A stretch of 10,076 nt of DNA from a bacterium (GTDB lineage: Bacteria; BMS3Abin14): positions 1,227,522-1,237,597 of the forward strand of contig CP070698.1 in the NCBI GenBank assembly GCA_020349685.1. Direction: 5' to 3'. Below are positions 1,230-9,801 of this stretch, one piece after another (position 1 is the stretch's first letter; every line of letters starts with the position of its first letter). The notes beneath the pieces are model-generated. The model did no database searches and was not told the origin of the DNA. It was given only the letters and a program-made list of their open reading frames with translations. Position numbers and translations under genes: made by a program.

Positions 1230-2033
1230 CTACCGCCGCCGCCCCCGCGGTCTCCTTGGACCCGGACGGACGGTGACGTTCCCGCTCTGGCGTGCCTCCC
1301 TTTCCTGCGAGATCTCCTTCTCCACGGCCTTCTCCAGCGTGTCCTTCTGGAATTTCAGCTCCTCTTTCTGTTTTCTCAGCCACTCCTCCTGGTCGTCGGC
1401 CTGATTTCCTTTGGTTTGTCCCTTTTGCGGCCTTCGCCCCTTGTCCGCCATAGCCTTGGCGTCGGCGGATGCGCCCTGTGCCCTGTCCACATGGCGCCTC
1501 CCGGCCGGCCGGTCCTTGACCCGGTCAGGGAAGGACCTGACTTCAAGGACCTTGTTCCCCTCCCGAGCCATCCCCTCATCCCCCGAAGGAGACCCAAACC
1601 GGGTCAGGAAAAAGATGCCCATGAGAACCAGAAAAACACCCGCGCCCGCGTACAGAACCTGAAGGCCCGCCAGGTCCCGGGACATCACCAGTCCCAGGAA
1701 GGCCAGGGGCAGGATGATGGAAACGAAGGTCAGCACCTTTGTCCTCAGCTGGAAAAGGTTCTTTACCGTCATCCACTGGGGCGCCGGAATGTCCACCACG
1801 AAAAGGGATCCTATGGCCACAGCCAGAAAGTACAGGAAGGCCGCTCTGATGAAATAGGGCACGACGGTGATCCCGCTGCCCGGATCCATGACGAAACCGC
1901 CCGTTACAGCAAGATCCGCCAGCCGCACGAGGCCTCGTCCCAGGGATCCCAGCGCCAGAAGGGCGAGAGCCAGGGCTGCCAGGGCGAAGAGGTACCGCAG
2001 ACCTGCCATAAAGGAACCGAATGCGCGCATCAT
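1230..2033 (-). CDS. Integral membrane protein (4 predicted TM helices) with a Lys/Glu/Arg-rich coiled-coil-like C-terminal tail; third gene of the nfeD-stomatin operon
   Basis: 267-aa ORF with ATGATG at 2033/2030. It begins 25 nt after the stomatin stop (2058) on the same strand. Hydrophobic segments are LRYLFALAALALALLALGSLG, PYFIRAAFLYFLAVAIGSLFVV, VLTFVSIILPLAFLGLVM and VLYAGAGVFLVLMGIFFL. The C-terminus QEEWLRKQKEELKFQKDTLEKAVEKEISQEREARQ...RPRGRRR is highly charged. The SD is weak, so translational coupling is possible. Confidence 0.7.
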   Translation of the reverse strand: MMRAFGSFMAGLRYLFALAALALALLALGSLGRGLVRLADLAVTGGFVMDPGSGITVVPYFIRAAFLYFLAVAIGSLFVVDIPAPQWMTVKNLFQLRTKVLTFVSIILPLAFLGLVMSRDLAGLQVLYAGAGVFLVLMGIFFLTRFGSPSGDEGMAREGNKVLEVRSFPDRVKDRPAGRRHVDRAQGASADAKAMADKGRRPQKGQTKGNQADDQEEWLRKQKEELKFQKDTLEKAVEKEISQEREARQSGNVTVRPGPRRPRGRRR

Positions 2034-2057
2034 GTTGTGTGGGACCTGCCTTTCTGC

Positions 2058-2840
2058 CTACTTGTCGTCTTCTCCGCCTGCCTTGTTCAGCACCTTCATG
2101 AAGCCGGTTACAAGGTCCATGGGGATCGGGAAGAGAGTCGTTGAATTATTCTCCGTGGCAATCTCCCTGAGCGTCTGCAGGTATCTGAGCTGGATGGCCT
2201 GGGAGTTGGTGGAGAGGACGTCGGCCGCCATTGCCAGTTTTTCGGATGCCTGGTGCTCACCCTCAGCGGCGATGACCTTGGCACGCCGTTCCCTCTCGGC
2301 TTCTGCCTGTTTGGCCATGGCCCGCTGCATCTCCGTGGGAAGGTCCACGTGCTTGATCTCCACCGTGGTCACCTTGACGCCCCAGGGATCGGTAGCCTGA
2401 TCCAGGATCTCCTGAAGCTGGTGGTTGATCTTCTCCCGCTCGGAGAGGAGATCGTCCAGTTCCACCTGGCCCAGGACGCTTCTGAGGGTCGTCTGGGCCA
2501 GCTGGCTTGTCGCGTAGTAGAAATCCTCCACCTCGACAATAGCCCTGGACGGGTCCATGACCCGGAAGTAGACCACCGCGTTGACCTTCACCGAGACGTT
2601 GTCCCTGGTGATGATGTCCTGGGGGGGGACATCCATGGTAACGAGCCGCAGGCTCACCCTCACAGCTCGCTCGATGAAGATGATCACCAGGGTGATCCCG
2701 GGACCCCTTGAACCTACCAGGCGGCCGAGGCGAAACACGACCAGCCTCTCATATTCGGTTACGATCTTGATACTGGCCAAAACGGCAAGGAAGACGAGGA
2801 CAAGAGCAATGACCAAAGGATTTGCAAACACGAAAGGCAT
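2058..2840 (-). CDS. Stomatin-like SPFH/band-7 family protein (prokaryotic stomatin, YbbK/QmcA/PH1511-like)
   Basis: 260-aa ORF starting at ATG 2840 with GGGGG SD (rc: GAAAAGGGGGTATAAA-ATG). It has an N-terminal TM helix and then [16 protein letters not shown]...[82 protein letters not shown]...[40 protein letters not shown], a textbook stomatin/SPFH core plus Ala/Glu-rich coiled coil. Confidence 0.92.
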
Positions 2841-2907
2841 TTTATACCCCCTTTTCGCTACCAGACGCCGTACGGCTCCATCTCAAGGGAGCAGAACCTC
2901 CCGGACG

Positions 2908-4350
2908 TCATGATTTCTCCTCTTTTTCGACGCCGACCTGAAGCACCATCCCATCCAGACCCAGAACGACGACTTGGTCCCCTATGCTGATGGGCTCCTT
3001 GCTCGAAGCGGACCAGATCTCACCTCGAACCCTGACTTTCCCGGCGTTCTTGATGTCCGTGGTTGCGACACCGCGCTCCCCGATCATCCCCTCCGCGCCT
3101 GTTGTCGGTTTTCTGCTCTGGCTCCTGATAACCAGTGTCAATCCCACAACGATGAAAAGAGCGGTCGTGAGGGTAAACGCCAGGATGAGAGACAAGGAAA
3201 CTTTCAGATACGGTTCCCCCGTCTCAAAGAGCATCATGCTCCCGAGAAACAGGGAAATGGCTCCACCCACGGAAAGCATACCATAGGAAACGACTTTCAC
3301 CTCCAGGATAAAGAGGACGATGGCCAGGATAATAAGGAGAAATCCGGCGTAATTGATGGGAAGGACCTGGAACGAGAAAAAAGCCAGGACGAGGAAGATC
3401 CCCCCGAGAACCCCCGGCAGGATGACTCCCGGGTTCGCCAGTTCGAAGAAAAGACCGTAGATCCCCAGCATCATGAGGATATAGGCGATGTTGGGGTCGG
3501 ACAGGGAGGACAGGATGCGGTGCCTGAAGCCCATGAGCCGATCCATCACCTCGGCACCCTTGACGGCCAGCACGACCTCCTCACCTGAGATCTTTACTTT
3601 CCTTCCATCGACAGCCGCGAGAAGGTCGTCCACGTCTTCCGCTATAAGATCGATCACGTTGAGTTCGAGAGCCTCGGTCTCTGTCACCGACACGCTTTCC
3701 CTGACGGCTTTTTCAGCCCATTCGGCGTTGCGGCCCTGTTTTTCGGCAATGGACTTTGCGAAAGCCACCGTGTCGTTGATGACCTTCTGCGCCATCACAC
3801 TCTCATCGGTTTCTGCAGGTTTTTTCTCCCCCTCTCCCTCTCGCCCCGTCTCCCCCTCGGGTTTCCCCTCCTCTCCCTCTCCTTTATCCTTTTCCTCCTC
3901 CTTTTTCGGGCTGAAAGGGTTCCCCCCCCCAATATTGACCGGGTGGGCCGCTCCTATATTGGTCCCGGGAGCCATGGCTGCCACGTGGGCCGACATGGTG
4001 ATGAACACCCCGGCCGAAGCCGCCCTGGCGCCGGGAGGGGCGACGTGAACAGCGACAGGGACCTGGGAACCGAGGATGCTTTTTACGATCTCCCGGGTGG
4101 ATGTCATCAGCCCGCCAGGGGTGTCGAGCTGGATGATGATCAGATCCAGCTTTTGTTCGGCAGCCTTTTCGATGTTCTTCTGGATGTAGTCGGCGCTCAC
4201 CGGGCTGATGGGGCCGTCAACGACGATCCTTGCCACCACGGGACGGCCGGCCCCGGCCGTGTCTTCCTCGGCCGCCGTAAGGGACGAGGCCAGCGGGACA
4301 GCCAGCGTAAGGATTAGAAAAAGGGTCAAACGCCAGGATCTTATTGTCAT
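2908..4350 (-). CDS. Long-form NfeD / STOPP: membrane-bound ClpP-class serine protease with multi-TM region and C-terminal NfeD OB-fold domain
   Basis: 480-aa ORF starting at ATG 4350 with GGGAGG SD (rc: TTTTTGGGAGGTAATCAGAA-ATG). It has a signal/TM N-terminus and a ClpP-like domain (VVARIVVDGPISPVSADYIQKNIEKAAEQ...IIIQLDTPGGLMTSTREIV...VAPPGARAASAGVFITMSAHVAAMAPGTNIGAAHPV). Five or so TM helices follow, then the C-terminal beta-barrel motif GAEGMIGERGVATTDI...GKVRVRGEIWSASS...ISIGDQVVVLGLDGMVLQV. It sits directly upstream of the stomatin gene, which is the conserved nfeD-stomatin operon. It contains an unusual acidic low-complexity insert (see below). Confidence 0.9.
   Translation of the reverse strand: MTIRSWRLTLFLILTLAVPLASSLTAAEEDTAGAGRPVVARIVVDGPISPVSADYIQKNIEKAAEQKLDLIIIQLDTPGGLMTSTREIVKSILGSQVPVAVHVAPPGARAASAGVFITMSAHVAAMAPGTNIGAAHPVNIGGGNPFSPKKEEEKDKGEGEEGKPEGETGREGEGEKKPAETDESVMAQKVINDTVAFAKSIAEKQGRNAEWAEKAVRESVSVTETEALELNVIDLIAEDVDDLLAAVDGRKVKISGEEVVLAVKGAEVMDRLMGFRHRILSSLSDPNIAYILMMLGIYGLFFELANPGVILPGVLGGIFLVLAFFSFQVLPINYAGFLLIILAIVLFILEVKVVSYGMLSVGGAISLFLGSMMLFETGEPYLKVSLSLILAFTLTTALFIVVGLTLVIRSQSRKPTTGAEGMIGERGVATTDIKNAGKVRVRGEIWSASSKEPISIGDQVVVLGLDGMVLQVGVEKEEKS
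3820..3931. repeat. ~90-nt homopyrimidine (C/T) tract on the + strand followed by a C9 homopolymer (3922-3930), inside the nfeD coding sequence
   Basis: Read directly: ttttttctccccctctccctctcgccccgtctccccctcgggtttcccctcctctccctctcctttatccttttcctcctcctttttcggg...tccccccccc. On the coding strand this is a GA-rich tract encoding KKEEEKDKGEGEEGKPEGETGREGEGEKKPAETDE, and G9 encoding GGG in ...NIGGGNPF.... Confidence 0.7.
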
Positions 4351-4560
4351 TTCTGATTACCTCCCAAAAAGTCTCCTCGAATCATTTTGAGAGCCGGTCA
4401 CGCCGAGGCGTGATCCTCCCAGCGGCATGACCGTTCGGCAAGCTCACGGCCCTGAGCTTCGTCGAAAGGTCGAGCGAGCGGAGCAGACCCGCCCGGCTGG
4501 ACCCACAGCCCTGGTAAAACGTTACCCACAACTCCAGCACGTTGAAGTTTCTCAAGTCCG

Positions 4561-5871
4561 TCAGATCTTTACTCCCAGGCTCGAGATCGGGACGGCAAGC
4601 CCCCGCGGCCCCACGAGATCGGGACCTCTTTTCCTGAAAGGAACCAGAAGCAGGGACTGCTTTGTCCCTTTTCTGGGAAATCTGCTTCTCGAGCTTGTAT
4701 TTGCGACGACATCGGCCATTTCGTCCGCCCCGTCTGCCGGCAGGCCCACCGGGAAAGGCTTCAACCGGAGTCTGTCCTGGTAGGGAATATTGCCTGCCTT
4801 GAAATCAGCATGGTAGTACCGCGCTGAGAGATTGTAAAGAAGGCGCGGCGAACGGACTTTGAAAGCGGGCACATAAAGGTTCCTGCTGTCCGAGCGGCGA
4901 AGCCAGAAGGGCATAAACAGTGTGGAAGGGTCCTTGAAGGAATCCGGACTGCCCGCCCAGAGGCATTCCTTTTCCCTCAACTCACCCCTGGAGGTCTCCC
5001 ATCCCCTGGCGCAGGAGTGGCAGAACCTGAGGTGGGCGGTGGGATCCGGGTCCAGGTCCCCAGCGCATTCCGGACAGATAAGGGAGGCCAGTTTAAGGCG
5101 CGTTTCACCCGGTGACCTGCTCTCCTTAAGACCGAGGTTGTCCAAGAGCGTCTCCATCTCCTCGTGCCTGAGCTGCCTGATGAGGCCGCCTCCGACGGCA
5201 TCGATGAGCAAAAGCCTGATGTTGTTCCCCTCCCGGATCTCTACAAGCGACAAGGGAAAATAGAGGACCGAATTCTTTTCCCACAGCCGGAACATCTTTT
5301 CCTCCACGACCCTCAAGCCTGGATCGGGCATGCCGTCGAAAAAATCGTCCTCCATCTTCCGGCTGTGTACCTCCCTCTCCTTTTGAACGGGAGCGAAGGG
5401 CAGCTTTCCGGCATTTTCCCGGGTCGCCAGCGAGAGGTTGAGCGACTGGGTCCTGAACCCCGGGGAAAAGAGACCAGGCGACAGGTCCATGTGGGCCGGA
5501 CGCATGAGGTCTACCGGGCGAGTCAAAAGCCTCGTCTGGCTGGTCCTGTCCGGACCGGTCCCTGTCTGGTGACCGACCACCCACCGGATGGCGTGTCCCG
5601 TGGTCCTGTAAAAAGGGAAATAGAACGGGATGACCGATCGGAGGAGAGGCGGTTTCCAACCGTTCTTCATGGCGATGCTCGTGACTTCGTGAGCCATTTC
5701 CCGAACATCTATCTTGGGCTTTATGAGGAAGTTAAGCCAGGCTGCCCCGGTTCCCAGGACCATGAGCCCCGCACCGCAGTATCTGCACCTGGTGCCGGTG
5801 GCTTCCTGGTCGAAAACCACCTCACCGCCGCATTGAGGGCAGTGATGACTGACGTAACAGGGGCGGTTCAC
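4561..5871 (-). CDS. Hypothetical protein with two Cys4 zinc ribbons and no recognisable conserved domain; distal gene of the 4-gene cluster
   Basis: 436-aa ORF starting at GTG 5871 (rc of cac 5869-5871), 15 nt after the Band_7_1 stop (TAG 5887-5889). The N-terminal ribbon is CPQCGGEVVFDQEATGTRCRYCG and the second is CPECAGDLDPDPTAHLRFCHSCARGW. Third positions are G/C-biased, consistent with coding. The SD is only a weak AGGAA ~13 nt upstream. The overlapping + strand 624-aa ORF is judged an antisense artefact. Confidence 0.65.
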   Translation of the reverse strand: MNRPCYVSHHCPQCGGEVVFDQEATGTRCRYCGAGLMVLGTGAAWLNFLIKPKIDVREMAHEVTSIAMKNGWKPPLLRSVIPFYFPFYRTTGHAIRWVVGHQTGTGPDRTSQTRLLTRPVDLMRPAHMDLSPGLFSPGFRTQSLNLSLATRENAGKLPFAPVQKEREVHSRKMEDDFFDGMPDPGLRVVEEKMFRLWEKNSVLYFPLSLVEIREGNNIRLLLIDAVGGGLIRQLRHEEMETLLDNLGLKESRSPGETRLKLASLICPECAGDLDPDPTAHLRFCHSCARGWETSRGELREKECLWAGSPDSFKDPSTLFMPFWLRRSDSRNLYVPAFKVRSPRLLYNLSARYYHADFKAGNIPYQDRLRLKPFPVGLPADGADEMADVVANTSSRSRFPRKGTKQSLLLVPFRKRGPDLVGPRGLAVPISSLGVKI

Positions 5872-5886
5872 TGTCAGGACACATTC

Positions 5887-7014
5887 CTATTCGATCTTTT
5901 CTCCGCAATGGAGACAGAAACGGGCTCCTTCGGGGACCTTGCGGCCGCATTTCGTACAGACAGGCTTGCTCTTCTTCACCTCGTGGCCGCACTCGTGGCA
6001 GAAGCGCGCATCGGAGGGAAGATCCTTTCCACAGGAGCCGCAAACCTGTCCCCGGACGACAGGAGTTCCGCATCGGAAACAGAAGCGGGCGTCGGCCGGC
6101 AGTTCGGCCTGGCACTGCGGGCACGAGTCCCCCCCGGTCGGCCCCGAAGGGGGTTTGCCCTCCAGGGTCGAGCGGAGAAAAGAAGGCACCATCATCCCCA
6201 GCCCGGCGCCCAACCCCAGCCCCATTCCGGATTCGGCGGTGGAGGGAGCTCCTCCCTCCCCCGCCCCCGCGGCGTCGCCCATGAACTGGGCGGCCTTGAA
6301 GCGGAGGTAATCCTTCTCGCCGACGGCGGTCATACTTCCTCTTTCATCGATGATCTTCTGGACATTATCTGGCGGCGTGATGGACTGTATAATGAGATCC
6401 TTCAGTTCCACACCGTATTTGAGGAACTCCTCCCTGATGCGCGCCTTGGCCGCCGCGCCCAGCTCTTCGTAAACCTGCGCCAGGTCGAGGATGGTGTCCA
6501 GATTCTCTCCGAGAAGGTCGTTGATGCGGGAGATGATGACCGCCCGCAGATAGTCGGAGATCTCATCGGTGGTGTAGACCCCCTGGGTGCCGACCAGGAC
6601 GTTGATGAACAGCATGGGCTGGACCACCCTGATGGTGTAGTTGCCGTGGGCCCGGAGCCTGACCATCCCGAGCTCCTTGTCCCTGAAGGCCACGGGGTCC
6701 CTCGTCCCCCAGGTCAGGTTCGTAAAGGTCTTCATGGAAGCGTAGTATACCGCCACCCTGAAGGGGCTCTTGAAACCAAAGGGCAGGCTGAGGGCTTTTG
6801 TGAGAAGGGGCAGGTTCTGGGTCGTCAGGGTGTGACGGCCGGGGCCCAGAACGTCCAGGGCGCGCCCGTCGCGGAAAAAGACAGCCGCCTGGTTCTCGTT
6901 AACGACGAGCTGGGCGCCGAATTTGATCTCGCCGGTTCCCTCGGGGGGGACCCGGTGGACCATTTCGGTGCCGGTGTGATCCACCCATTCCAGAACCTCT
7001 ATGAATTCACTCAA
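5887..7014 (-). CDS. SPFH-domain protein of the Band_7_1 type (PF13421-like, YdjI-like) with Gly-rich linker and three C-terminal zinc ribbons
   Basis: 375-aa ORF. The N-terminus MSEFIEVLEWVDHTGTEMVHRVPPEGTGEIKFGAQLVVNENQAAVFFRDGRALDVLGPGRHTLTTQNLPLL matches the characteristic Band_7_1 start (compare B. subtilis YdjI, MGLFDFIKKQFIDVIEW...WRFP...GAQLTVRESQAAIF...GPGRYTL). After the linker GDAAGAGEGGAPSTAESGMGLGLGAGLG come three ribbons: CPQCQAELPADARFCFRCG, CGSCGKDLPSDARFCHECG and CTKCGRKVPEGARFCLHCG. The start codon is TTG (rc of caa 7012-7014), preceded by a strong SD CCAGGAGGCGGACA-TTG that lies inside the end of the upstream gene (8-nt overlap). Confidence 0.85.
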   Translation of the reverse strand: MSEFIEVLEWVDHTGTEMVHRVPPEGTGEIKFGAQLVVNENQAAVFFRDGRALDVLGPGRHTLTTQNLPLLTKALSLPFGFKSPFRVAVYYASMKTFTNLTWGTRDPVAFRDKELGMVRLRAHGNYTIRVVQPMLFINVLVGTQGVYTTDEISDYLRAVIISRINDLLGENLDTILDLAQVYEELGAAAKARIREEFLKYGVELKDLIIQSITPPDNVQKIIDERGSMTAVGEKDYLRFKAAQFMGDAAGAGEGGAPSTAESGMGLGLGAGLGMMVPSFLRSTLEGKPPSGPTGGDSCPQCQAELPADARFCFRCGTPVVRGQVCGSCGKDLPSDARFCHECGHEVKKSKPVCTKCGRKVPEGARFCLHCGEKIE

Positions 7015-7522
7015 TGTCCGCCTCCTGGCTTTCCATGATCCTCTTCCGGCCCTCCAACGCGTTCCTCAGATCCTTGACAGCCTCCTCGAGCCCTGATGTC
7101 CAGTCGATGTCGGAACCGATGTGGTCCACGTCACCGACGTATTCGGGCAACGCCTGCGCGGCGCTCAGCAGACCCAGATCGTACTCATAGAGCTTTTCCA
7201 GATCCTCCAGAGAGATCCCCTCCCGGTCGAACCAACCCGCGTAACCGTAGGCGGCAAAGCGCAGTTCATCTTCCATGCGCTCCAGCTTTGTAACCAGGCG
7301 TTCGAGGTTTCCTATTAAACGGAGGTTCTTCATCCCCCCCGACCTCGACAGATCATTCATGACCTCGGAGATCAGTTCCCGGCACCTGGCAACCTCCTCG
7401 GCAGCCCTGATCCTGACCGCCTTGTCCGCGTCACGCCTCTTCTCCCGGTCCTGGTAACCCCCTATACCCGGTATGATCCGCGCGATCTTTTCCAGTAGCC
7501 CTGCCACCTTGGGCTGCGTCAT
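7007..7522 (-). CDS. Hypothetical cytoplasmic protein, 171 aa, predicted helical/coiled-coil; second gene of the 4-gene cluster
   Basis: ATG at 7522-7520 overlaps the upstream stop in an ATGA arrangement (tcat at 7519-7522), which implies translational coupling. Stop TGA at 7007-7009. The sequence MTQPKVAGLLEKIARIIPGIGGYQDREKRRDADKAVRIRAAEEVARCRELISEVMNDL...EGRKRIMESQEADIE has no recognisable family. It contains a G7 run at 7334-7340. Confidence 0.6.
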   Translation of the reverse strand: MTQPKVAGLLEKIARIIPGIGGYQDREKRRDADKAVRIRAAEEVARCRELISEVMNDLSRSGGMKNLRLIGNLERLVTKLERMEDELRFAAYGYAGWFDREGISLEDLEKLYEYDLGLLSAAQALPEYVGDVDHIGSDIDWTSGLEEAVKDLRNALEGRKRIMESQEADIE

Positions 7523-8082
7523 GTTTTCCGCCTGTCTGCCGGTCCGGCCTTGATCCTCACTTTCCCCTCCTCGCTCACGACCTTGAAGGCGACCTTCTCG
7601 CTGCCATATTTTTCCCTTATTGTTTGGGCCTGCTGCTCCAGGGCGGTTCGGACCTTCTCCATGTCGGGGGTCTTACCGTTTCCGAGACGCTGGTATTCCC
7701 GGGTGAGAGCGGAAAAGAGCTTGTCCATCTCTCCCTTGTCGGTGTTGCTGGTGGAGACCTCGAAAACACCGGGAAGCTGCTCCTGGGGGGCGGCAGCCTG
7801 GGTGACCGGCGTGGCTCTCCTCACCTGTTTCCTGCCCTCTTCGAGCTCCCTTAAGTTCCTCTGCCAGTACTGGAGATAAGTGTTGTAGCGGGATATGGCC
7901 TGCTGGGTGCGAAAGCGCAGGGCCGTGTTCGTCATGACGGTGGAGGTGAGGGTACGGACCTCCCTTGCGACCTTGTCGGCGAGCTTGTCCGGAGGCCGGC
8001 GTTCGACCCCCGCGAAATACTGATCGTAGGCTGCCTTGAGCTTGTTTATGTCCTGTTCGAGTTTGCGCACTTTTTCTTCCAT
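7519..8082 (-). CDS. Hypothetical protein, 187 aa, charged/helical N-terminus; first gene of the 4-gene cluster
   Basis: ATG at 8082-8080 (rc of cat) with weak SD. Stop at 7519-7521. The protein MEEKVRKLEQDINKLKAAYDQYFAGVERRPPDKLADKVAREV...KYGSEKVAFKVVSEEGKVRIKAGPADRRKT has no family recognisable by eye. It lies directly downstream of an AT-rich divergent promoter region. Confidence 0.6.
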   Translation of the reverse strand: MEEKVRKLEQDINKLKAAYDQYFAGVERRPPDKLADKVAREVRTLTSTVMTNTALRFRTQQAISRYNTYLQYWQRNLRELEEGRKQVRRATPVTQAAAPQEQLPGVFEVSTSNTDKGEMDKLFSALTREYQRLGNGKTPDMEKVRTALEQQAQTIREKYGSEKVAFKVVSEEGKVRIKAGPADRRKT

Positions 8083-8127
8083 TTATTACCGGTCTGCCCT
8101 TTCTCTCCCCACCATACAGGGAAAAAT

Positions 8128-8238
8128 GATAACAGAGGGGATAAGGGAAATAAAGTAATAGTAACAACTAGTGCCAAGCGATAAGAGATAGGAGATGGGG
8201 ATTGGTCCTCCAGGCTTATCTCTTCAGCACTTATCTCC
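8128..8238. promoter_or_regulatory. Cluster of GATAAG-type motifs in direct and inverted orientation (putative operator) in the divergent intergenic region
   Basis: GATAAC (8128-8133), GGATAAGGGA (8139-8148), CGATAAGAGATAGGAGAT (8180-8197), GCTTATCTCTTC (8214-8225; rc GAAGAGATAAGC) and ACTTATCTCC (8229-8238; rc GGAGATAAGT). AAGAGATA (8183-8190) and TATCTCTT (8217-8224) form a perfect 8-bp inverted repeat ~26 bp apart. The region is AT-rich. Confidence 0.45.
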
Positions 8239-8337: not shown

Positions 8338-9801
8338 ATGCAGGGCCATCATTCGGAGAACTTTTCCAGAAGCATGCACCAGCAGACGACATCCCCCCTC
8401 CTGACCATCATTCTCGCAGCCGGGAAAGGAACCCGGATGAAGACTTCCCTTCCCAAGGTCCTGCACACACTGAGAGGCCGCCACCTTATCGACCACGTCC
8501 TGGACACCGCATCCCGTGCTGGTCCGGGCAGGGTCATCGTCATCTCGGGACATGGCGCCGATGCCGTAGCCGCCTCCATAAGGCGAAGAACCGGCCAGTA
8601 CGAGATGGTCATTCAGGAGCCTCAGCTGGGCACAGGCCACGCCGTAGCCCAGTGCCTGGGCGGCCTCGCCGGCTTTGACGGAACGGTCCTGGTTCTTTCC
8701 GGTGACGTGCCGAAGCTCAGGCCCGAAACGGTTGAAGGACTGATCCGATCGAGGTTGGAAACAGGTTCTGATATCAGCATCCTCACGGGATACCTGGCAG
8801 ACCCAACCGGTTACGGGAGGATCATCCGGGATCCTGGCGGAAAGGTCACCGGGATCCGGGAGCAAAGGGACCTTCATCCGGATCAGGAAAGCATCAACGA
8901 GGTGAACCTGGGTGTGTATGCATTCGATGCCGCCTTTCTCACCAGGGAACTTCCCAAACTGAGAAACGACAATGCCCAGGGGGAATACTACCTGACGGAT
9001 CTCGTCGGCGCGGCCGTCCGGTCAGGCGGCGGAGCCGTTACCTTTGCAGCCGAGGACCACGCCGAAGCGCTGGGCATCAACACCCTTTTGGAACTGTCGG
9101 AAATGGAGACCAATATGAACCGGGAATACCTCAAAAAGCTAATGGATTCGGGTGTCCGCATCCTCGACCCCGCCCGCACCTGGATCGACGACACGGTGAC
9201 CGTCGAGGCGGATGTAGTGATCCACCCCACGGCCTTTCTTTACGGAACCACCACCGTTGGAGCGGGCTCGGTCATCGGCCCGGGAGCAGTGATCACCGAC
9301 TCCCTCATCGGCAGGGATGTCGAGATCAGGCCCTACTGCGTCATCACCGGTTCCAAAGTCGGAGACCAGGCGGCCGTAGGGCCCTTTTCCCACATGCGCG
9401 CCGGCACCGAGATCGGCCCTTCGGCGCGGATCGGCAATTATGTGGAGACCAAGATGGCGGTCATCGGCGAGAACAGCAAAGTTTCCCACCTGACCTACGT
9501 TGGGGATGCCGAACTGGGAAACAACGTAAACATCGGGGCGGGATGCGTCACCTGCAATTACGACGGCTTTAACAAGTACAGGACCGTCATCGAAGACGGG
9601 GTTTTTGTCGGCAGCGGCACCATGATGGTGGCCCCCATAACCATCGGTAAAGGGTCCCTCGTCGCGGCGGGATCGACCCTGACAAAGGACGTGCCTCCCG
9701 ACTCCCTCGCCATCGCCCGGAGCCACCAGTCGGAAAAACAAGGCTGGGCAGCCAAAAGGCGTGAAAAGCTCGCCGCCGAGAAAAAGAAGGAGAAAAGCTG
9801 A
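8338..9801 (+). CDS. glmU: Bifunctional UDP-N-acetylglucosamine pyrophosphorylase / glucosamine-1-phosphate N-acetyltransferase
   Basis: 487-aa ORF with the N-terminal nucleotidyltransferase signature [23 protein letters not shown]...LVLSGDVP and a C-terminal left-handed beta-helix with hexapeptide repeats ([61 protein letters not shown]...). An AGGGAA SD lies 7 nt before ATG 8338. An alternative in-frame ATG at 8374 (M13) has no SD. Unusual Lys-rich C-terminal tail [17 protein letters not shown]. Stop TGA 9799-9801. Confidence 0.93.

Follow-up and report, generated by a model that had tools for sequence, protein, structure and literature searches.

Fusion of a YdjI/SamI-type SPFH module and an NfeD-stomatin pair in a seven-gene operon-like island

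Described SPFH systems and the layout of the island

SPFH proteins oligomerise to form membrane-attached rings or cages, and stomatin, flotillin and HflK/C all build membrane cages of this type. In the stomatin branch, the protease PH1510 cuts the C-terminal hydrophobic region of the stomatin PH1511 and binds stomatin via its OB domain, while the Band_7_1/YdjI class is, to our knowledge, the least understood class of SPFH proteins, having been studied only in B. subtilis. Here we describe a stretch of 10,076 nt from contig CP070698.1 (assembly GCA_020349685.1; hereafter the window), in which seven consecutive minus-strand open reading frames (ORFs; 1230-8082, here g1 to g7, each confirmed in the ORF list) bring a Band_7_1 gene together with an NfeD protease gene and a stomatin gene. 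The locus joins membrane-maintenance systems of known kinds in an operon-like fusion and does not define a new type. We consider it on balance probable that the island is one co-regulated, operon-like unit that represents the end-to-end fusion of two independently widespread SPFH modules in one uncultured lineage, with a likely role in membrane stress or quality control. The seven genes are as follows.

g1, 8082-7519, minus strand: 187 aa, NCBIfam MXAN_5187_C domain
g2, 7522-7007, minus strand: 171 aa, no Pfam match, weak LIMLP_15305 match
g3, 7014-5887, minus strand: 375 aa, Band_7_1 (E 2e-63) plus zinc-ribbon models
g4, 5871-4561, minus strand: 436 aa, a weak TFIIB-type ribbon match as the sole Pfam/NCBIfam match, two CxxC..CxxC ribbons
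g5, 4350-2908, minus strand: 480 aa, NfeD1b_N, NfeD_membrane and NfeD domains
g6, 2840-2058, minus strand: 260 aa, Band_7
g7, 2033-1230, minus strand: 267 aa, no Pfam/NCBIfam match, about four hydrophobic segments and a K/R/E/Q-rich tail

The spacing across these genes is operon-like. The g1 and g2 frames overlap by 4 nt (ATGA) and the g2 and g3 frames by 8 nt with AGGAGG upstream, followed by spacers of 15 nt (g3/g4), 210 nt (g4/g5), 67 nt (g5/g6) and 24 nt (g6/g7). Homologs of all seven proteins, at 50-99% identity, exist in other assemblies, so all seven are real genes, and the GenBank annotation (JSV70_059xx-060xx) describes them in generic terms as SPFH domain-containing, NfeD, slipin or hypothetical proteins. 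Hydrophobic segments are absent from g1-g4, whereas g5 has a signal/transmembrane (TM) segment and a multi-TM block, g6 an N-terminal anchor and g7 about four TM segments. The gene identities assigned in an earlier note on this DNA proved right, with Pfam/NCBIfam, structure-sequence matches and hydrophobicity in agreement. The two SPFH proteins, g3 and g6, share 24% identity over 157 aa (E 0.004) and by this alignment are distant paralogs. The relatives of the lineage and the homologs of g1 point towards an affinity with Desulfobacterota. The same species is also represented in the Logan runs SRR31444216, SRR31444219 and SRR31444232.

For the first part of the island, the described system for comparison is B. 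subtilis pspA-ydjGHI (pspA-samGHI). YdjI/SamI consists of an SPFH domain, a low-complexity stretch and a zinc finger without a membrane anchor; it is recruited to the membrane via partner proteins and modulates envelope-stress signalling (PMC8581546; bioRxiv 10.64898/2026.02.06.704340). YdjG comprises two zinc ribbons and a YpeB-related NTF2-like domain followed by a TM segment (Ravi et al., PMC11237479). Compared by published description, the architecture of g3 is that of YdjI/SamI: a Band_7_1 SPFH domain (residues 27-229; PF13421, E 2e-63), a Gly/Ala/Leu/Met-rich low-complexity linker (~245-290) and C-terminal zinc ribbons (298-370; additional Zn_Ribbon_1 and DZR matches), with no TM anchor. 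Likewise compared by description, g4 resembles YdjG and appears to match it in fold class, with TFIIB/PF08271-type ribbons and a YpeB/PepSY-related alpha+beta domain encoded next to the SPFH gene. By these descriptions the Band_7_1 block is the probable counterpart of the YdjI/YdjG system, with g2 and g4 as recurrent partners, a correspondence that the earlier note had missed.

The differences from the Bacillus system are nevertheless substantial. Pfam, NCBIfam, PDB profile, hhalign and jackhmmer searches found no PspA in the window, nor did jackhmmer find one in any of 152 loci, and a TPM-domain YdjH is lacking as well (no TPM_phosphatase match in the window proteins, Pfam/NCBIfam). Unlike YdjG, g4 has no TM segment and is a duplicated unit of zinc ribbon plus domain, instead of two ribbons, one domain and a TM segment. 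In g3, twelve metal-binding cysteines make up three C-terminal CxxC-N10-CxxC ribbons; g2 is an extra gene with no described Bacillus counterpart, and the gene order is different.

For the second part, PH1510/PH1511 and E. coli QmcA-YbbJ serve as references: g5 carries all three NfeD1b domains and the stomatin gene g6 lies immediately downstream, while the pair is here welded to a second SPFH module. Clusters that combine an SPFH scaffold with an NfeD-family protein and envelope-stress genes are described in B. subtilis (yuaFGI) and in Acidobacteriota (PspA-band7-FloT-NfeD) (PMC9239133, PMC11237479). There the SPFH proteins are of flotillin type, the NfeD proteins are short (YuaF/YqiJ) and PspA is present, in contrast to the Band_7_1 and stomatin proteins, the long protease-bearing NfeD and the lack of PspA found here. 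With HflK/C-FtsH and other SPFH-protease pairs the locus shares the logic of an SPFH cage and a membrane protease, whereas the proteases are of different classes and nothing here indicates that a Band_7_1 protein controls a protease.

The NfeD-stomatin pair and its junction with the Band_7_1 module

The g5 protein starts with a signal/TM segment and a ClpP-class protease domain, continues with a multi-TM block (~287-410) and ends in a C-terminal OB-fold NfeD domain (419-472), with Pfam matches to PF25145 (E 3e-18), PF24961 (1e-25) and PF01957 (6e-15). It aligns with P. horikoshii PH1510 (2deo/3bpp; phmmer E 4e-34), the catalytic Ser112 of its AASAG motif being aligned to Ser97; Lys189, which precedes the first printed residue of the alignment by one position, corresponds to PH1510 Lys138 by our own numbering. 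A match to 3wwv, 'stomatin operon partner protein', was also obtained. Of the features of the NfeD1b/STOPP-stomatin class, the locus has a ClpP-class Ser-Lys protease, multi-TM and OB-fold domains and an adjacent same-strand stomatin gene. Between Ser112 and Lys189 lies a 49-aa Glu/Lys/Gly-rich insert (residues 139-187, positions 3790-3936), acidic and lysine-rich and absent from PH1510. The g6 SPFH protein (Pfam Band_7, 1e-38) has an N-terminal hydrophobic anchor and a 16-residue C-terminal hydrophobic stretch and matches human stomatin (E 1e-70), P. horikoshii stomatin (6e-65) and QmcA (3e-42). By these matches g6 is a genuine prokaryotic stomatin (slipin) and, as judged from domains and position, g5-g6 is a canonical NfeD1b/STOPP-stomatin pair, in which g5 would cleave g6 by analogy.

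The last gene, g7, matches nothing in Pfam, NCBIfam or PADLOC. It follows stomatin in L014, L016 and L018 (phmmer), a same-length unannotated gene occupies that place in L070, and it is absent from L002, L015 and L017; it is therefore a variable accessory gene. On the side of the NfeD family, locus L001, from a complete 2.16-Mb metagenome-assembled genome (MAG), encodes at 11314-12302 an NfeD protein without the OB domain, next to a convergent radical-SAM gene.

The order g1-g2-g3-g4-nfeD(-stomatin), read as far as contigs extend, is found in 11 related loci (L001, L002, L011, L014-L019, L070 and L071), and every locus with the fusion has a g4 with 50-100% identity to that of the window. In L001, L002, L014, L015, L018 and L070, the stop codon of g4 and the start codon of nfeD share the sequence ATGA, and the tail of g4 contains GGAGG, an arrangement that by sequence is classic translational coupling. 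Upstream of g1 lies the following element.

8124..8138, minus strand: promoter-like motif CCTCTGTTATCATTT, ~45-55 nt upstream of the g1 start codon

This 15-nt motif, of the form CCTCTG[T/A]TATCATTT, contains TGnTATCAT, which is extended -10-like. Nine related loci each carry one exact copy at the equivalent position upstream of g1, no further copy was found in the 151 loci covered, and the DNA flanking the motif is otherwise unalignable among the related loci. The motif is the best candidate for the operon promoter, a function that we infer from its conservation. A separate candidate, a sigma-54 promoter at TTGGCAC upstream of g1, was rejected since the spacing to the -12 GC misfits the TGGCAC-N5-TTGC consensus.

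Co-regulation of the seven genes, which the earlier note had raised, is well supported by the overlapping frames, the motif upstream of g1 in nine loci and the g4/nfeD ATGA overlap in relatives. Four observations weigh against our reading. First, the motif has a weak -35 region, and a promoter consensus scan did not flag the site. Second, no NfeD or stomatin gene was found within 7-10 kb in any of 48 g3-g4 loci or any of 62 g2-g3 loci outside the lineage (~110 Band_7_1 loci). The two SPFH subfamilies thus normally stand apart, as had been said before, and the conserved synteny that the earlier note looked to comparative genomics for holds in the 11 related loci, at g4 identities down to 50%, and was not seen outside the lineage. 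Third, L001 (CP070682) keeps the first module with an NfeD protein truncated to 329 aa and no adjacent stomatin gene. Fourth, the coupling is broken in the window genome by the 210-nt spacer, and selection for tight coupling is therefore not strong.

We propose that module A (g2-g3-g4, led by g1) would constitute a PspA-less YdjI/SamI-type system, with g3 as a soluble scaffold, g2 as its upstream partner and g4 as a downstream partner resembling YdjG. In module B (g5-g6, in some genomes with g7), by analogy with PH1510/PH1511, the protease would bind stomatin via the OB domain and trim the stomatin C-terminus, and stomatin would form an oligomeric, membrane-anchored cage. The ancestral fusion would have taken the form of translational coupling, the g4 stop codon overlapping the nfeD start codon. 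One promoter upstream of g1 would then drive the joint production of two scaffolds, an SPFH scaffold on the cytoplasmic face and a scaffold of SPFH protein and protease within the membrane, and their co-production may serve a membrane-stress or membrane-protein quality-control response. Any contact between the modules is conjectural.

A stronger form of this proposal is an obligate physical super-complex, in which NfeD, stomatin and g7 replace the YdjG TM segment and YdjH as anchors and dock the Band_7_1, g2 and g4 proteins, and in which NfeD might process g3 or g4. [quoted passage not shown] A further parallel comes from a Desulfobacteraceae MAG (L045, 8858-16016), where a Band_7_1 gene and a g4-like gene are followed by a Band_7 SPFH gene (321 aa) that overlaps a gene for a 1141-aa AAA+/Lon_C protease; this is an independent second pairing of g3-g4 with an SPFH and protease couple, and it follows the same cage-and-protease logic as HflK/C-FtsH. 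However, 48 other loci have the g3-g4 pair by itself amid unrelated housekeeping genes (DnaE, AccA, ADH, HlyD and others) with no anchor gene, and the pair therefore needs no NfeD or stomatin in cis. The loss of stomatin adjacency in L001, the variability of g7 and the broken coupling in the window genome argue in the same direction, and we consider such a complex unlikely. The 'functional super-module' of the earlier note went beyond the evidence, given that the adjacency is confined to one lineage, that NfeD is truncated in L001 and stomatin missing beside it, and that g7 is present in only some of the relatives.

Under the favoured reading of a co-regulated fusion, the nfeD-stomatin coupling is a natural experiment that suggests joint deployment of both scaffolds and links systems studied in isolation. 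If the link amounts to co-regulation alone, the outcome is useful annotation (g2 and g4 named, the gap read correctly) and not a surprise.

The Band_7_1 module and its recurrent partners

The g4 protein contains two Cys4 ribbons, at residues 11-32 and 266-287, and the fold matches of its other domain include cystatin, NTF2 and VirB8-like alpha+beta folds. Its two halves align with each other (hhalign 95.9%, E 6e-9), so g4 is a duplicated unit of a zinc ribbon and a PepSY/YpeB-like domain; g4 has no TM segment and eight g4 relatives checked show no clear one, although a single relative has a borderline hydrophobic window. A genome scan with a g4 alignment yielded 56 loci, and all ORFs of these loci were compared with the window proteins. 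Of the 50 distant loci, 48 carry a Band_7_1 gene directly upstream of their g4-like gene, and the other two contigs begin inside the g4-like gene. These 48 loci are from Desulfobacterales, Syntrophobacterales, Syntrophorhabdus, Desulfovibrionaceae, Thermodesulfovibrio/Nitrospirota and one Dehalococcoidia. All-against-all clustering of the distant loci revealed no recurrent gene family beyond the pair itself and shadow ORFs, and the genes downstream of the pairs are unrelated housekeeping genes. On a Dehalococcoidia contig (L042, 840-3921), two tandem g4-like ORFs follow a Band_7_1 fragment.

The g2 protein is predicted to be mostly helical, with the fold of a generic bundle, and has no Pfam model. 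An exhaustive profile search collected 1285 cluster representatives of its family at E <= 1e-3, which share the motifs IPGxxGYxDRExRRDxD and YGYxGFFD. A metagenome scan was conducted with a narrowed alignment by the g2-family motifs alone, the loci being chosen without reference to Band_7_1, and returned 80 loci (29 clusters at 70% identity). A gene encoding a Band_7_1 and zinc-ribbon protein follows g2 on the same strand in 62 of 62 informative loci, the remaining 18 contigs ending <1.4 kb downstream. The two genes are adjacent in ~41 of the 62; in the other 21 one gene intervenes, encoding a zinc ribbon, a TM segment and a Toastrack (DUF4097) domain. An intervening gene of this kind was noted on many contigs from soil and sediment (L094 1231-2430 and 27 similar loci). 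Furthermore, 28 loci have just upstream of g2 a gene for a 253-aa zinc-ribbon and PepSY-like protein, a single-repeat protein homologous to the N-terminal half of g4 (hhalign 98.7%, E 3e-16). Taken together, g2 is a recurrent upstream partner and g4 a recurrent downstream partner of Band_7_1 genes. In a cultured example, by comparison, the Band_7_1 gene of a Gemmatirosa plasmid is solitary, with neither g2 nor g4 beside it. Among g2-family proteins such as P0222, P0286 and P0297, some have their domain fused to DUF4178 and others carry long low-complexity tails; DUF4178 is a beta-rich domain linked to PspA/polyamine operons, and both DUF4178 and Toastrack are associated with the phage-shock protein (PSP) response (PMC11237479).

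These surveys give the Band_7_1 class a partner set outside Firmicutes (the g2 family, zinc-ribbon and PepSY-like proteins, and Toastrack proteins), and they reveal YdjI/SamI-type systems without a nearby PspA gene across several phyla, so that PspA is not needed in cis. We regard the definition of g2 and g4 as Band_7_1 partners and the PspA-less YdjI/SamI versions as the more useful by-products of the analysis. A more far-reaching idea, which we put forward as speculation that is more probably wrong than right by a wide measure, is that g2 and the Band_7_1-zinc-ribbon protein, with a zinc-ribbon/PepSY-like or a zinc-ribbon-TM-Toastrack protein, make up a widespread, undescribed, PspA-independent SPFH stress system, of which SamGHI would be one offshoot and which would here be wired to stomatin-NfeD. 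In that event the NfeD protease or the stomatin cage could, for instance, tether or process the soluble Band_7_1 proteins, and the locus would provide the first example of a pathway with SPFH scaffolds from two subfamilies.

The first gene of the island has a history of its own. The g1 protein is soluble, with a conserved N-terminal region, an MXAN_5187 C-terminal domain (NF041621, E 9e-10) and no TM segment, and 91 homologs were found. Desulfuromonadales homologs with 36-38% identity occupy the same position, divergent from glmU-glmS and followed by a gene for a patatin-like phospholipase (L008 6091-7792; L009 1194-2905; L010 3564-5275), and no SPFH genes follow. Because the Desulfuromonadales gene sits in the same place with patatin instead, g1 is probably the older resident of this position, which the block from g2 to stomatin would have joined later. 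The same context hints that g1 was present before the SPFH block and acts as an adaptor related to lipids or membranes.

The genes g1 and g2 could also be imagined as cryptic PspA/ESCRT-III-like effectors, which would make the locus a complete phage-shock-type system like pspA-ydjGHI. Both proteins are soluble, most of g2 is predicted to be helical, the sequence of g1 suggests a high helix content, both genes lie upstream of Band_7_1 as pspA does in B. subtilis, and the g2 family has DUF4178 fusions and Toastrack neighbours, both PSP-associated (PMC11237479). Against this, no PspA match was obtained in Pfam/NCBIfam, PDB profile searches found no PspA, Vipp1 or ESCRT-III (and for g1 no similarity to PspA or to any PDB entry), hhalign to E. 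coli PspA gave a probability <1% for both families, and jackhmmer with PspA was empty in the window and 152 loci. Moreover, g1 is unrelated to g2 and also occurs with patatin and no SPFH gene; a paralogous relationship between g1 and g2 was rejected at an hhalign probability of 1%. We judge this possibility very improbable and retain a PspA-less module A as part of the fusion.

The 210-nt spacer and the neighbouring genes

Within the window genome, the two modules are separated by the following region.

4351..4560, minus strand: g4-nfeD spacer of 210 nt, with imperfect GC-rich palindromes and the nfeD Shine-Dalgarno sequence GGGAGGT at its 3' end

The earlier note had described this gap as holding two GC palindromes and perhaps an internal promoter or attenuator. 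The inverted repeats are real (4395-4405/4423-4433 and 4440-4459, together with a 44-nt imperfect palindrome), whereas the regulatory part of the claim found no backing: scans of the spacer detected no sigma-70-like or terminator-like site, Rfam gave no match, there was no copy of the conserved motif upstream of g1, and the RNA fold was ordinary relative to shuffled sequences (z = -0.94; 36 of 200 shuffles fold as well). The spacer is confined to the species of the window, including L011 (99% identical), and to L071 (82% identity), where it measures 202 nt. It is absent from L070 (78% identity) and all more distant relatives, at least six of which have the g4/nfeD overlap instead. By this distribution the spacer is a recent, sub-clade-specific insertion and not an ancestral regulatory region.

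Comparison of the window with L071 showed that both spacer ends are kept, as are the ribosome-binding region of nfeD and a small hairpin, TCACGC-N4-GCGTGA, while the rest has diverged; the hairpin lies ~50 nt upstream of nfeD, and the last ~45 nt of the spacer are likewise conserved. An internal promoter or operator is indicated by nothing beyond this small conserved hairpin. A 57-aa ORF with a TTG start (4382-4555, minus strand) was rejected as a gene, its frame being broken in L071 by 7- and 1-nt indels. The spacer was also rejected as a riboswitch, attenuator or small RNA given the lack of an Rfam match, the ordinary folding energy and the partial conservation in L071.

These data bear on the alternative that the window genome has separate transcription units, the spacer carrying an internal promoter, operator or attenuator for nfeD, stomatin and g7. 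The spacer is long enough for this, holds GC-rich inverted repeats and supplies nfeD with its own Shine-Dalgarno sequence, and the conservation of the hairpin and the last ~45 nt in L071 amid divergence elsewhere would fit a regulatory site. However, the negative scans for sigma-70-like and intrinsic-terminator-like sites, for Rfam families and for the g1-type motif, the unexceptional folding, the recent origin of the insertion, missing in most relatives, and the unconserved frame of the 57-aa ORF all count against it. We hold separate units to be rather unlikely, and prefer to read the spacer as an interruption of the coupling inside one co-regulated unit.

The surroundings of the island were considered with respect to an anti-phage defence or mobile accessory island. 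Some defence contexts do contain SPFH and protease genes, and the island has a variable gene, g7, and an insertion. Nevertheless, g1 alone among eight proteins matched a PADLOC model, and then marginally (DndD, a coiled-coil match, E 0.008), the island has an even GC content, and neither an integrase nor repeats were found. Synteny is also stable across relatives, the island being flanked by glmU-glmS and, at its other end, by the DUF1722 gene and zwf/gnd. A defence or mobile island is thus extremely unlikely, and a co-regulated fusion of resident membrane-maintenance genes remains the reading that we prefer.

On the g1 side, the divergent neighbour is glmU (8338-9801, plus strand; TIGR01173, E 7e-164), and the arrangement of glmU-glmS and g1 is kept even in Desulfuromonadales. 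In several of the g2-Band_7_1 metagenome loci, a sugar-nucleotidyltransferase/hexapeptide gene lies ~3 kb upstream. On the g7 side, a minus-strand gene (214-990) encodes a 258-aa protein that shows a weak pyrimidine-dimer-glycosylase-like match at its N-terminus and carries a DUF1722 domain at its C-terminus. This downstream gene on the same strand is conserved in the lineage, 60-380 nt past the last gene of the SPFH cluster, and is probably a separate DNA-repair gene. Two long plus-strand ORFs run antisense to the island, at 5164-7038 (624 aa) opposite g3/g4 and at 1212-2144 (310 aa) opposite g7; their Arg/Gly/Pro-rich composition suggests that they are shadows of the GC-rich coding strand.

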